DNA of 64,000 bases. It comes from Escherichia coli. Lineage in GTDB: Bacteria > Pseudomonadota > Gammaproteobacteria > Enterobacterales > Enterobacteriaceae. Positions 12,136 to 59,651 of this stretch are shown piece after piece (the first letter of the stretch is position 1; each line of letters starts with the position of its first letter). Both the position numbers and the translations under genes were made by a program. The notes below the pieces were generated by a model. The model worked only from the letters and a program-made list of their open reading frames with translations, searched no databases and had not been told where the DNA came from. The DNA is taken from the NCBI RefSeq assembly GCF_051903065.1, contig NZ_CP178438.1; one strand, given 5' to 3'.

Positions 12136-12498
12136 GGGGCTGATTCTGGATTCGACGGGATTTGCGAAACCCAAGGTGCATGCCGAGGGGCGGTTGGCCT
12201 CGTAAAAAGCCGCAAAAAATAGTCGCAAACGACGAAAACTACGCTTTAGCAGCTTAATAACCTGCTTAGAGCCCTCTCTCCCTAGCCTCCGCTCTTAGGA
12301 CGGGGATCAAGAGAGGTCAAACCCAAAAGAGATCGCGTGGAAGCCCTGCCTGGGGTTGAAGCGTTAAAACTTAATCAGGCTAGTTTGTTAGTGGCGTGTC
12401 CGTCCGCAGCTGGCAAGCGAATGTAAAGACTGACTAAGCATGTAGTACCGAGGATGTAGGAATTTCGGACGCGGGTTCAACTCCCGCCAGCTCCACCA
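12136..12498 (+). ncRNA. ssrA: tmRNA (SsrA), intact 363 nt
   Basis: Starts GGGGCTGATTCTGGATTCGACGGG, contains the tag-peptide reading frame region and ends ...GGTTCAACTCCCGCCAGCTCCACCA. Confidence 0.95.
12454..12498. repeat. Prophage attachment-site repeat, ssrA-proximal copy (45 bp)
   Basis: ATGTAGGAATTTCGGACGCGGGTTCAACTCCCGCCAGCTCCACCA is repeated exactly at 45935-45979. Confidence 0.9.
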
Positions 12499-55091: not shown

Positions 55092-56540
55092 ATGAAACTG
55101 AACGACAGTAACTTATTCCGCCAGCAGGCGTTGATTAACGGGGAATGGCTGGACGCCAACAATGGTGAAGTCATCGACGTCACCAATCCGGCGAACGGCG
55201 ACAAGCTGGGTAGCGTGCCGAAAATGGGCGCAGATGAAACCCGCGCCGCTATCGACGCCGCCAACCGCACCCTGCCCGCATGGCGTGCGCTCACCGCCAA
55301 AGAACGCGCCAACATTCTGCGCAACTGGTTCAATTTGATGATGGAGCATCAGGACGATTTAGCGCGCCTGATGACCCTCGAACAGGGTAAACCGCTGGCT
55401 GAAGCGAAAGGCGAAATCAGCTACGCCGCCTCTTTTATTGAGTGGTTTGCCGAAGAAGGCAAACGCATTTATGGCGACACCATTCCCGGTCATCAGGCCG
55501 ATAAGCGCCTGATTGTTATCAAGCAGCCGATTGGCGTCACCGCGGCCATCACACCATGGAACTTCCCGGCGGCGATGATTACCCGTAAAGCCGGCCCGGC
55601 GCTGGCGGCAGGCTGCACCATGGTGCTGAAGCCCGCCAGTCAAACGCCGTTCTCTGCGTTGGCGCTGGCGGAGCTGGCGATCCGCGCGGGCATTCCGGCA
55701 GGCGTGTTTAACGTGGTCACCGGTTCGGCGGGCGCGGTGGGTAACGAACTGACCAGCAATCCGCTGGTGCGCAAACTGTCGTTTACCGGTTCGACCGAAA
55801 TTGGCCGCCAGTTAATGGAACAGTGCGCGAAAGACATCAAAAAAGTGTCGCTGGAGCTGGGCGGCAACGCGCCGTTTATCGTCTTTGACGATGCCGATCT
55901 CGATAAAGCCGTGGAAGGCGCACTGGCTTCGAAATTCCGCAACGCCGGGCAAACCTGCGTCTGCGCCAACCGTTTATATGTGCAGGACGGCGTGTATGAC
56001 CGCTTTGCCGAAAAATTGCAGCAGGCGGTGAGCAAACTGCATATCGGCGACGGGCTGGAGAAAGGCGTCACCATCGGGCCGCTGATCGATGAAAAAGCGG
56101 TAGCAAAAGTGGAAGAGCATATTGCCGATGCGCTGGAGAAAGGCGCGCGCGTGGTTTGCGGCGGTAAAGCGGATGAACGCGGCGGCAACTTCTTCCAGCC
56201 GACCATTCTGGTGGACGTTCCAGCCAACGCCAAAGTCTCGAAAGAAGAGACGTTCGGCCCCCTCGCCCCGCTGTTCCGCTTTAAAGATGAAGCCGATGTG
56301 ATTGCGCAAGCCAATGACACCGAGTTTGGCCTTGCCGCCTATTTCTACGCCCGTGATTTAAGCCGCGTCTTCCGCGTGGGCGAAGCGCTGGAGTACGGCA
56401 TCGTCGGCATCAATACCGGCATTATTTCCAATGAAGTGGCCCCGTTCGGCGGCATCAAAGCCTCGGGTCTGGGTCGTGAAGGTTCGAAGTATGGCATCGA
56501 AGATTACTTAGAAATCAAATATATGTGCATTGGTCTTTAA
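55092..56540 (+). CDS. gabD: Succinate-semialdehyde dehydrogenase (NADP+)
   Basis: 482-aa aldehyde dehydrogenase starting MKLNDSNLFRQQALINGEW. Confidence 0.92.
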   Translation: MKLNDSNLFRQQALINGEWLDANNGEVIDVTNPANGDKLGSVPKMGADETRAAIDAANRTLPAWRALTAKERANILRNWFNLMMEHQDDLARLMTLEQGKPLAEAKGEISYAASFIEWFAEEGKRIYGDTIPGHQADKRLIVIKQPIGVTAAITPWNFPAAMITRKAGPALAAGCTMVLKPASQTPFSALALAELAIRAGIPAGVFNVVTGSAGAVGNELTSNPLVRKLSFTGSTEIGRQLMEQCAKDIKKVSLELGGNAPFIVFDDADLDKAVEGALASKFRNAGQTCVCANRLYVQDGVYDRFAEKLQQAVSKLHIGDGLEKGVTIGPLIDEKAVAKVEEHIADALEKGARVVCGGKADERGGNFFQPTILVDVPANAKVSKEETFGPLAPLFRFKDEADVIAQANDTEFGLAAYFYARDLSRVFRVGEALEYGIVGINTGIISNEVAPFGGIKASGLGREGSKYGIEDYLEIKYMCIGL

Positions 56541-56553
56541 CTGGAGAACGCGA

Positions 56554-57834
56554 ATGAGCAGCAATAAAGAGTTAATGCAGCGCCGCAGTCAGGCAGTTCC
56601 TCGTGGCGTTGGGCAAATTCACCCCATTTTCGCTGATCGCGCGGAAAACTGCCGGGTGTGGGACGTTGAAGGCCGTGAGTATCTTGATTTCGCGGGCGGC
56701 ATTGCGGTGCTCAATACCGGGCACCTGCATCCTAAAGTGGTTGCGGCGGTGGAAGCGCAGTTGAAAAAATTGTCGCACACCTGCTTCCAGGTGCTGGCTT
56801 ACGAGCCGTATCTGGAGCTGTGCGAGATTATGAATCAGAAGGTGCCGGGCGATTTTGCCAAGAAAACGCTACTGGTCACCACGGGTTCCGAAGCGGTGGA
56901 AAACGCGGTGAAAATCGCCCGCGCCGCCACCAAACGTAGCGGAACTATCGCCTTTAGCGGCGCGTACCACGGGCGCACGCATTACACGCTGGCGCTGACC
57001 GGCAAGGTGAATCCGTACTCTGCGGGCATGGGGCTGATGCCTGGGCACGTTTATCGCGCGCTTTATCCTTGCCCGCTGCACGGCATCAGTGAAGATGACG
57101 CTATCGCCAGCATTCACCGAATTTTTAAAAATGATGCTGCGCCGGAAGATATCGCCGCCATCGTGATTGAGCCGGTTCAGGGCGAAGGCGGTTTCTACGC
57201 CGCGACGCCAGCCTTTATGCAGCGTTTACGCGCGCTGTGTGACGAGCACGGGATCATGCTGATTGCCGATGAAGTGCAGAGCGGCGCGGGGCGTACCGGC
57301 ACGCTGTTTGCGATGGAGCAGATGGGCGTTGCGCCGGATCTTACCACCTTTGCGAAATCGATCGCGGGCGGTTTCCCGCTGGCGGGCGTCACCGGGCGCG
57401 CGGAAGTGATGGATGCCGTCGCTCCAGGCGGTCTGGGCGGAACCTATGCCGGTAACCCGATTGCCTGCGTAGCTGCGCTGGAAGTGTTGAAGGTGTTTGA
57501 GCAGGAAAATCTGCTGCAAAAAGCCAACGATCTGGGGCAGAAGCTAAAAGACGGATTGCTGGCGATAGCCGAAAAACACCCGGAGATCGGCGACGTACGC
57601 GGCCTGGGAGCGATGATTGCCATCGAGCTGTTTGAAGATGGCGATCACAGCAAACCGGACGCCAAACTCACCGCCGAGATCGTGGCTCGCGCCCGCGATA
57701 AAGGCCTGATTCTTCTCTCCTGCGGCCCGTATTACAACGTGCTGCGCATCCTTGTACCGCTCACCATTGAAGACGCTCAGATCCGTCAGGGTCTGGAGAT
57801 CATCGGCCAGTGTTTTGCTGAGGCGAAGCAGTAG
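56554..57834 (+). CDS. gabT: 4-aminobutyrate aminotransferase
   Basis: 426-aa class-III aminotransferase starting MSSNKELMQRRSQAVPRGV. Confidence 0.92.
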   Translation: MSSNKELMQRRSQAVPRGVGQIHPIFADRAENCRVWDVEGREYLDFAGGIAVLNTGHLHPKVVAAVEAQLKKLSHTCFQVLAYEPYLELCEIMNQKVPGDFAKKTLLVTTGSEAVENAVKIARAATKRSGTIAFSGAYHGRTHYTLALTGKVNPYSAGMGLMPGHVYRALYPCPLHGISEDDAIASIHRIFKNDAAPEDIAAIVIEPVQGEGGFYAATPAFMQRLRALCDEHGIMLIADEVQSGAGRTGTLFAMEQMGVAPDLTTFAKSIAGGFPLAGVTGRAEVMDAVAPGGLGGTYAGNPIACVAALEVLKVFEQENLLQKANDLGQKLKDGLLAIAEKHPEIGDVRGLGAMIAIELFEDGDHSKPDAKLTAEIVARARDKGLILLSCGPYYNVLRILVPLTIEDAQIRQGLEIIGQCFAEAKQ

Positions 57835-57844
57835 CACCGCCCCC

Positions 57845-58110
57845 ATGCCGGAGGCGACGCTGCGCGTCTTGTCCGGCCTACAGGTATCAGGTCGGATAAG
57901 GCGTTTACGCCGCATCCGACATTCGGCGCACCATGCCGGAGGCGACGCTTACGCGTCTTGTCCGGCCTACGGAAATGTAGGTCGGATAAGGCGTTTACGC
58001 CGCATCCGACAATCGGCGCACCCATGCCGGAGGCGACGCTTTGCGTCTTGTCCGGCCTACGGGGATCCAGGTCGGATAAGGCGTTTACGCCGCATCCGAC
58101 AATCTGTACG
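57845..58110. repeat. REP/BIME palindromic element cluster (three units)
   Basis: Three copies of GCCGGATGCGGCGTAAACGCCTTATCCGACCTAC-type REP units in alternating orientation between gabT and gabP. Confidence 0.85.
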
Positions 58111-58250
58111 TGAACAGGAATAAATCTATGTTGGCCGGGTAAGGCGGAGCCGCTCTCCGGCAAAAAGAATCAATAACAATTAAACGCGTGACCCGACGCG
58201 GGAAATGTCGGGGCGCTCTCCCAAGTGACACACTTTCGAGAGGATTCAGG

Positions 58251-59651
58251 ATGGGGCAATCATCGCAACCACATGAGTTAGGCGGCGGGCTGAAGTCACG
58301 CCATGTCACCATGTTGTCTATTGCCGGTGTTATCGGCGCAAGTCTGTTTGTCGGTTCCAGCGTCGCCATCGCCGAAGCGGGCCCGGCGGTATTACTGGCC
58401 TATCTGTTCGCCGGGCTACTGGTGGTTATGATTATGCGGATGTTGGCGGAAATGGCGGTTGCCACGCCCGATACCGGTTCGTTTTCCACCTATGCCGATA
58501 AAGCCATTGGTCGCTGGGCGGGCTATACCATCGGCTGGTTGTACTGGTGGTTTTGGGTACTGGTTATCCCGCTGGAAGCCAACATCGCCGCCATGATCCT
58601 GCACTCGTGGGTTCCAGGCATTCCCATCTGGTTATTTTCCCTCGTCATTACCCTTGCCTTAACTGGCAGTAATTTATTAAGCGTTAAAAACTACGGCGAA
58701 TTTGAGTTCTGGCTGGCGCTGTGCAAAGTCATCGCTATCTTGGCCTTTATTTTCCTTGGTGCAGTCGCAATTAGCGGTTTTTACCCGTATGCCGACGTGA
58801 GCGGGATCTCAAGATTGTGGGATAGCGGCGGCTTTATGCCCAACGGCTTCGGTGCGGTATTAAGCGCGATGTTGATCACCATGTTCTCGTTTATGGGCGC
58901 AGAAATTGTCACCATTGCCGCCGCGGAATCCGACACGCCGGAAAAACATATTGTCCGCGCTACCAACTCGGTTATCTGGCGTATTTCTATCTTCTATTTG
59001 TGCTCTATTTTTGTCGTAGTGGCGTTAATACCGTGGAATATGCCGGGGCTGAAAGCCGTTGGTTCTTATCGCTCGGTTCTGGAATTGCTCAATATTCCCC
59101 ATGCGAAATTAATCATGGACTGCGTGATATTACTTTCCGTAACCAGCTGTCTGAACTCGGCGCTGTATACCGCGTCAAGGATGCTCTACTCCTTAAGCCG
59201 TCGCGGTGATGCGCCCGCGGTAATGGGCAAAATCAATCGCAGTAAAACCCCGTATGTGGCGGTGTTACTCTCCACCGGAGCGGCATTTTTAACGGTGGTG
59301 GTGAACTATTACGCACCTGCGAAAGTGTTTAAATTCCTGATAGACAGCTCCGGTGCTATCGCCCTGCTGGTTTATTTAGTCATCGCCGTTTCACAGTTGC
59401 GGATGCGTAAAATTCTGCGAGCAGAAGGAAGCGAAATTCGCTTGCGCATGTGGCTTTACCCGTGGCTCACCTGGCTGGTAATAGGCTTTATTACCTTTGT
59501 GTTGGTGGTGATGTTATTCCGCCCGGCGCAACAGTTAGAAGTGATCTCTACCGGCTTATTAGCGATAGGGATTATCTGTACCGTGCCGATTATGGCGCGC
59601 TGGAAAAAGCTGGTATTGTGGCAAAAAACACCCGTTCATAATACGCGCTGA
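58251..59651 (+). CDS. gabP: GABA permease (APC family)
   Basis: 466-aa multi-TM transporter starting MGQSSQPHELGGGLKSRHVTML. Confidence 0.92.
   Translation: MGQSSQPHELGGGLKSRHVTMLSIAGVIGASLFVGSSVAIAEAGPAVLLAYLFAGLLVVMIMRMLAEMAVATPDTGSFSTYADKAIGRWAGYTIGWLYWWFWVLVIPLEANIAAMILHSWVPGIPIWLFSLVITLALTGSNLLSVKNYGEFEFWLALCKVIAILAFIFLGAVAISGFYPYADVSGISRLWDSGGFMPNGFGAVLSAMLITMFSFMGAEIVTIAAAESDTPEKHIVRATNSVIWRISIFYLCSIFVVVALIPWNMPGLKAVGSYRSVLELLNIPHAKLIMDCVILLSVTSCLNSALYTASRMLYSLSRRGDAPAVMGKINRSKTPYVAVLLSTGAAFLTVVVNYYAPAKVFKFLIDSSGAIALLVYLVIAVSQLRMRKILRAEGSEIRLRMWLYPWLTWLVIGFITFVLVVMLFRPAQQLEVISTGLLAIGIICTVPIMARWKKLVLWQKTPVHNTR

Follow-up and report, generated by a model that had tools for sequence, protein, structure and literature searches.

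No other repeats are as abundant in E. coli as the REP/BIME elements. Those located between malE and malF are said to shield the upstream segment of the message from 3' exonucleases, with differential expression of the operon as the outcome, as Newbury et al., cited in PMC12306157 and PMC6061677, reportedly found in 1987. The array between gabT and gabP discussed here resembles them in that its REP hairpins also lie between two genes of one operon, and differs from them in the operon itself and in the arrangement of the REPs, this comparison being made via the literature.

In the Gilson/Bachellier nomenclature, BIME-2 elements consist of y and z2 REPs, inverted with respect to each other, separated by a short linker and present in tandem copies; the number of copies differs between strains, while the copies at one locus stay alike (PMC3333891). 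One BIME-2 has been dissected experimentally in K-12, namely REP325, a six-unit element between yjdM and yjdN. Its deletion lowers the expression of the upstream yjdM approximately 3-fold and raises that of the downstream yjdN approximately 10-fold, its transcripts make up a ladder of species ending in hairpins, and the read-through about doubles in the presence of bicyclomycin, this sensitivity being partial (bioRxiv 10.64898/2026.03.23.713779).

Structure of the gabT-gabP intergenic region

The analysis covered a 64-kb stretch of E. coli DNA (hereafter the window; all coordinates refer to it). The genes flanking the array were identified as gabT, encoding 4-aminobutyrate--2-oxoglutarate transaminase (NCBIfam NF005985, 912.6 bits with a cut-off of 713), and gabP, encoding GABA permease (NF007566, 1062.5 bits with a cut-off of 871, residues 1-466), because both products score above the cut-offs of the respective NCBIfam equivalogs and agree with the RefSeq record NZ_CP083585.1, which is 100% identical. 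Over a 601-bp stretch, this locus shows 100% identity with three complete E. coli chromosomes, in the RefSeq annotation of which the gene order is lhgO-gabD-gabT-gabP-csiR, all on a single strand. The two co-oriented genes are separated by a 416-bp spacer with the following features:

57832..57834, + strand: stop codon TAG of gabT (ORF 56530..57834)
57835..57846, + strand: 12 nt separating the stop codon of gabT from the foot of the first REP hairpin
57847..57881, + strand: y-type REP of unit 1 with its CTAC end (exact pattern match; -20.3 kcal/mol)
57882..57890, + strand: short (S-type) linker of unit 1, AGGTATCAG, with GTAG degenerated to TCAG
57891..57920, + strand: z2-type REP of unit 1, in the opposite orientation to the y REP (exact match; -18.8 kcal/mol)
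57921..57934, + strand: inter-unit linker ATTCGGCGCACCAT, aligning to the "l" linker of the naRNA4 model
57935..57970, + strand: y-type REP of unit 2 (regular-expression match, spacer positions 101-136; -21.5 kcal/mol)
57971..57980, + strand: S linker of unit 2, with GTAG intact at 57977-57980
57981..58010, + strand: z2-type REP of unit 2 (exact match; -18.8 kcal/mol)
58011..58025, + strand: inter-unit linker AATCGGCGCACCCAT, within the Rfam alignment
58026..58060, + strand: y-type REP of unit 3 (exact pattern match; -20.3 kcal/mol)
58061..58070, + strand: S linker of unit 3, GGGGATCCAG, with GTAG degenerated to CCAG
58071..58100, + strand: z2-type REP of unit 3 (exact match; -18.8 kcal/mol)
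58134..58161, + strand: seventh, degenerate z-like REP GCCGGGTAAGGCGGAGCCGCTCTCCGGC (hairpin of -15.4 kcal/mol)
58166..58250, + strand: gabP leader, about 85 nt, identical in every allele type including the one without a BIME (four allele types aligned)
58251..58253, + strand: start codon ATG of gabP (RefSeq annotation and NCBIfam NF007566)

Thus, in each unit a y-type REP is followed, after a short linker, by a z2-type REP in inverse orientation, and the array as a whole is made up of six full REP palindromes in alternating orientation, organized as three tandem y/z2 pairs of about 90 bp. The search for tandem repeats (TRF) delineated it at 57838-58104, with a period of 90, 3.0 copies and 90% matches. 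The y palindromes follow the pattern GCCGGAGGCGACGC-(loop)-GCGTCTTGTCCGGCCTAC, and the z2 palindrome GTCGGATAAGGCGTTTACGCCGCATCCGAC is present in three identical copies, each of them 9-10 nt after its y REP. Neither the y-type nor the z2-type core was matched in any of 100 dinucleotide-preserving shuffles of the window, so the array is far beyond chance.

The sequence-only reading, which had placed REPs in alternating orientation between gabT and gabP at 57845-58110, was right as to the genes, the place and the alternation. Its count of three REPs has to be corrected to six, three being the number of pairs, and its span leaves out the seventh, degenerate REP. It had also described the REPs as filling the intergenic space; the six REPs in fact cover 254 of the 416 bp, and the remainder is taken up by the seventh REP and the conserved gabP leader.

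According to the Rfam search and blastn-short, the array is the sole REP cluster within the 64-kb window; beyond it, blastn-short returned one partial y-like match, at about 51018, within an IS1 copy. This copy, assigned to IS1A, is situated at 50700-51400 beside an alpha-amylase-like gene (the ygaQ region), about 7 kb upstream of the array, in a segment that is 100% identical to strain 23CRST027; the 26-nt stretch inside it that is similar to the inner portion of a y REP (GGCGACGCTGGGGCGTCTTATGAGCC) occupies approximately 51015-51042. Elsewhere in the window, the tmRNA gene (ssrA) was recognized at 12136-12498 (Rfam RF00023, 295.8 bits).

In the K-12 RefSeq feature table, the gabT-gabP spacer carries no REP feature. 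Three ORFs overlap the array (57752..58123 on the + strand, 57786..58163 on the - strand and 57958..58113 on the + strand), and none of them is annotated in any RefSeq record. These ORFs, found on both strands within 57752-58163, would encode 123, 125 and 51 aa and look like artefacts of a stop-poor, G+C-rich repeat.

A consensus scan of 57500-58500 revealed neither a sigma-70-like promoter nor a plus-strand intrinsic terminator; the scan was confined to sigma-70-type sites, and promoters of other types could escape it. By inspection of the sequence, no T-run follows any of the REP hairpins, and a G+C-rich hairpin directly succeeded by a U-run does not occur on the + strand of the array. Since the spacer has no such promoter or terminator, the array is most simply regarded as an intercistronic element of the csiD-lhgO-gabDTP transcript, sitting on the transcribed strand inside the csiD(glaH)-lhgO-gabD-gabT-gabP transcription unit.

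Assignment of the array to BIME-2

The element is a canonical BIME-2 of three units. The gap between y and z2 amounts to 9-10 nt in every unit, as is expected of a BIME-2 pair, and the units are tandem and variable in number, with 3.0 copies here and 1, 2, 3 or 4 units elsewhere in E. coli. Like other BIME-2, the array is extragenic, differs in copy number between strains and consists of copies that are highly similar within the locus. The earlier designation of the element as a typical BIME is therefore correct and can be narrowed to BIME-2 on account of its y/z2 pairs, short linker and tandem copies. The comparison with the REP consensus, which the sequence-only reading had itself proposed as a check, bears it out: the z2 core is identical to the z2 consensus at 26 of 26 positions, within three identical 30-mers, and two stretches of the array, 57890-57967 (77.1 bits) and 57980-58057 (68.7 bits), exceed the gathering score of the Rfam naRNA4 family (RF02564, 59.5), the scores on the + strand being higher than those on the - strand. 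The naRNA4 match denotes a sequence class and not a function, because the Rfam model in effect recognizes any y/z2 BIME-2 unit.

The y REPs are imperfect palindromes, present in three copies of 35-36 nt with internal mismatches and folding energies of -20.3 to -21.5 kcal/mol. All three carry CTAC (GTAG on the opposite strand) at the foot on the + strand, are aligned with the y half of the covariance model for naRNA4 and are about 90% identical to the y consensus over 21-29 nt (blastn-short), with two locus-specific changes in the stem; a non-canonical pair in the y stem is flagged by the Rfam alignment. The array deviates from the BIME-2 consensus in three respects. In the z2 stem, GTCGGAT...ATCCGAC replaces GCCGGAT...ATCCGGC, which is a compensated pair; in the y stem, GCCGGAGG...TTGTCCGGC replaces GCCTGATG...TTATCAGGC; and the GTAG adjacent to z2 on its 5' side is intact in unit 2 only, with TCAG in unit 1 and CCAG in unit 3. 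The stem changes (C:G to U:A in z2; U:A to G:C plus one extra mismatch in y) are common to all copies and all strains. In the other alleles, GTAG is kept in the proximal units and lost in the last one.

With REP325/naRNA4 of the K-12 yjdM-yjdN locus the gab array shares the z2-l-y unit type scoring above the gathering threshold, the position between two co-oriented genes of one operon and the orientation relative to transcription. It differs in its locus and in its size, three units (six hairpins) versus six units (twelve hairpins) of REP325. BIME-1, RIB and RIP elements are likewise inverted REP pairs in intergenic DNA. BIME-1, however, combines y and z1 REPs through a long linker with an IHF site and occurs as a single copy, whereas the gab array has z2 REPs, linkers of 9-10 nt and repeated units. 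No match to the IHF consensus (WATCAANNNNTTR) was found on either strand of 57835-58250, and the identity with BIME-1 or RIB was rejected because of the lack of the IHF site and of the long linker and the z2 nature of the partner REP.

RNA folding and conservation of the stems

The folding energy is -18.8 to -21.5 kcal/mol for each of the six REP hairpins and -144.5 kcal/mol for the array; the fold of the whole spacer RNA has a z-score of -8.6 relative to shuffled sequences, and the minimum-energy fold also contains long y:z2 helices that span the short linkers. From 10 alleles we aligned 24 units, of which 19 are distinct. In the 19 distinct units, 99.8% of the stem cells are paired; there is one broken pair and one compensatory change (G:C to A:U, in UTI89). 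Across the alleles the stems are nearly invariant and the loops and linkers vary, the S linker of unit 1 being one of the variable blocks: 3 of the 46 paired columns are variable versus 22 of the 38 unpaired ones (Fisher p = 4e-7, calculated for units that are not independent of each other). As duplication and probably also gene conversion connect the units with one another, the conservation of the stems is not clean evidence for selection on RNA structure; it could instead be the product of recent duplication and gene conversion. The distance between the gabT stop codon and the first REP is exactly 12 nt in 10 of 10 BIME alleles, though several bases of this stretch vary between alleles.

Alleles of the gabT-gabP spacer among E. 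coli genomes

The population sample consisted of 5,426 complete E. coli genomes, in which the following types of the spacer were distinguished:

BIME-type spacer, all copy numbers (various lengths): 4,050 genomes at ≥80% coverage (about 75%)
One unit (237 bp; K-12 MG1655, UTI89): the large majority of the sampled BIME-type matches
"One and a half" units, fused to the seventh REP (263 bp): seen in Ecol_316
Two units (331 bp): seen in OZ197100
Three units (415-417 bp): at least 21 genomes
Four units (507 bp): at least 8 genomes
Unrelated spacer without a BIME (310 bp): 1,304 of 5,426 genomes (24%)

Because BLAST pieces of a single unit join to cover all three units of the query, coverage cannot serve for counting copies, and we used the spans of the records and junction-specific 60-mers instead. 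The 60-mers covering the z2-then-y junction occur in only 74-82 genomes, i.e., two or more units are present in about 1.5% of the sample (a few of these matches were checked, and those were confirmed to be at the gab locus). The sampled matches suggest that nearly all BIME carriers have one unit, and the three-unit allele of the strain studied is rare compared with the single unit of K-12. The latter looks as if units 1 and 3 of the window array had been fused inside the y REP, and its linker is identical to the S linker of unit 3. The number of units would change by recombination between the repeats or by the activity of TnpA(REP), and such changes would be expected to alter the strength of any effects that the array has.

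The carriers of the 310-bp spacer include O104:H4, O111 and a T7 Express strain (an example is E. coli CRE10, L003:636-945). This spacer consists of a stretch rich in A/T and, after it, a long G/C-rich palindrome (…GGGGAGAGGGTTAGGGTGAGGGG…CCCTCACCCC…CCCTCTCCC…), part of which is dispersed at 1-6 places per genome. The z-score of its RNA fold is -7.4. The palindrome seems to resemble the "boxC" repeat family.

The seventh REP and the leader of gabP

The degenerate REP downstream of the array matches the left arm of z2 at 13 of 14 positions and is also present in K-12 and UTI89. In the Ecol_316 allele (L009:636-898, the 263-bp spacer), it forms a fusion with a z2 REP, about 64 nt being deleted; since a z2 REP has recombined with it, the seventh REP is a genuine homologue, and REP-REP recombination occurs at the gab locus.

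The gabP leader lies outside the BIME. It can form two hairpins, at 58186-58216 and 58217-58241, and in the second of these CUCUC is base-paired to GAGAG, with which the Shine-Dalgarno sequence GAGAGGA (58238-58244) starts. As the beginning of the Shine-Dalgarno sequence is paired in this model, the leader structure may limit the translation of gabP. We know of no annotation of it.

Discussion

By analogy with REP325, mRNA stabilization together with attenuation of read-through, which the sequence-only reading had already suggested, is the best-supported functional reading, and the BIME-2 array probably fine-tunes how much of the gabT and gabP messages survives. More specifically, we suppose, with a probability of about 0.6, that it protects the gabD-gabT message, partly attenuates the read-through into gabP and thereby sets the expression of gabT above that of gabP, and that it may in addition lower the output of GabT. 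Its transcript would form either six hairpins of high stability or longer y:z2 helices. Such structures would bar 3'->5' exonucleases, giving the upstream gabD-gabT segment of the message a longer life than the gabP segment, and they would also make some of the transcription end or pause before gabP, possibly aided by Rho; the exonuclease block and the attenuation would together determine the ratio of gabT to gabP expression. As to the translation of gabT, a gene is reported to be translated less when a REP lies less than 16 nt from its stop codon (Liang et al. 2015, as summarized in PMC12306157). The 12-nt spacing in gab is below this limit, and the first hairpin may thus hinder the terminating ribosomes and slightly decrease the output of GabT.

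Several facts count against a strong effect of the array. Fragments of REP325 with 2-4 hairpins displayed no dependence on Rho, and in the same study terminal REPs were not generally tied to longer half-lives, their effects being context dependent (bioRxiv 10.64898/2026.03.23.713779). There is no C-rich, G-poor rut-like stretch downstream of the array, the C/G ratio being 0.8-1.2 in the spacer and the start of gabP. No particular dose of the BIME appears to be required, as 24% of the genomes lack it and the number of units ranges from 1 to 4 in the others. In the literature search, no paper was found that mentions gabT, gabP and REP together or links the gab genes to Rho or bicyclomycin, nor were expression, half-life or 3'-end data for the gabT-gabP spacer.

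It is quite possible, although we consider it less probable than not by a good measure, that the array is a neutral or selfish non-autonomous element, which changes by unequal recombination, slippage or the action of TnpA(REP) and has no selected function at this locus. The polymorphism of the spacer in both the presence and the copy number of the BIME (237, 263, 331, 415-417 and 507 bp, with an unrelated element in 24% of the genomes), the rarity of multi-unit alleles, the likeness of the K-12 unit to units 1 and 3 joined and the recombinant between z2 and the seventh REP in Ecol_316 are all in line with this, as are the general variability of BIME-2 copy number and the ability of TnpA(REP) to recombine BIMEs in vitro (PMC3333891). 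What a purely neutral repeat accommodates less readily is that the stems are almost invariant while the loops and linkers diverge, that the slot is always occupied by a strongly structured element, be it a BIME or the other palindrome (z = -7.4), that the spacing from the stop codon is fixed, and that the comparable array REP325 has measurable local effects. A role at the level of DNA is somewhat more doubtful still, and it would be compatible with a role of the RNA: the array could act, independently of transcription, as a strong site of gyrase binding and cleavage or as a topological barrier, with the y REPs as targets. The array does have three y REPs of standard architecture, BIME-2 have been proposed to be supercoiling barriers (PMC10592627), and gyrase cleavage sites are over-represented in BIME-2, mainly in y REPs, with a signal that increases after rifampicin (PMC6379681). 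However, only a subset of BIME-2 is cleaved, the text supplements of that study mention neither gabT nor gabP (PMC6379681), and the y REPs of gab carry locus-specific changes (GCCGGAGG in place of GCCTGATG).

Two further explanations appear very improbable to us. According to the original naRNA4/HU model, the RNA of REP325 binds HU and condenses the nucleoid (PMC4550694), and the gab array, with its two z2-l-y stretches above the Rfam gathering score, might by extension be a source of naRNA4-like small RNAs that bridge DNA cruciforms together with HU and condense the chromosome. Yet the Rfam model matches any y/z2 BIME-2 unit, the gab locus is not yjdM-yjdN, and for REP325 itself neither deletion nor over-expression changed the volume of the nucleoid and no HU-dependent REP-REP contacts were detected, in a study co-authored by the senior author of the original naRNA4 paper (bioRxiv 10.64898/2026.03.23.713779). 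We give equally little credence to the array being a full terminator of the csiD-gabT transcript, with gabP expressed from its own promoter in the spacer. The length of the spacer (416 bp) and the conserved stretch of about 85 nt just upstream of gabP could be taken to favor it, but 57500-58500 contains no sigma-70-like promoter and no hairpin with a U-run on the + strand, and a T-run is absent after every REP hairpin; both the intrinsic terminator and the separate gabP promoter were rejected on these consensus scans, which covered sigma-70-type sites only.

Protection of the gabD-gabT message with partial attenuation before gabP remains our preferred reading, and the gab junction behaves like a textbook case of a BIME and matters little alone: the array is an element of an already known kind in a known place, the only local twist being the rare three-unit allele. 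The practical value of the analysis consists in the corrected count (six REPs, forming a BIME-2) and in the recognition of this rare allele as opposed to the single unit of K-12. A bolder interpretation, which we put forward as speculative and rather unlikely, is that the number of BIME-2 units (1, "1.5", 2, 3 or 4) is a heritable dial of the GabT:GabP ratio, and that the sharing of the slot reflects selection for any strong RNA structure 3' of gabT. The occurrence of a BIME and of an unrelated palindrome in one and the same slot could mean that selection acts on the structure rather than on REP as such, and, were the dial to exist, the uptake of GABA/glutarate relative to its catabolism would be set differently across the lineages of E. 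coli. The locus offers a natural allelic series at a single operon junction, from no BIME to one, two, three and four units, and this series could serve as a ready-made test of the effect of REP dose on expression within an operon.
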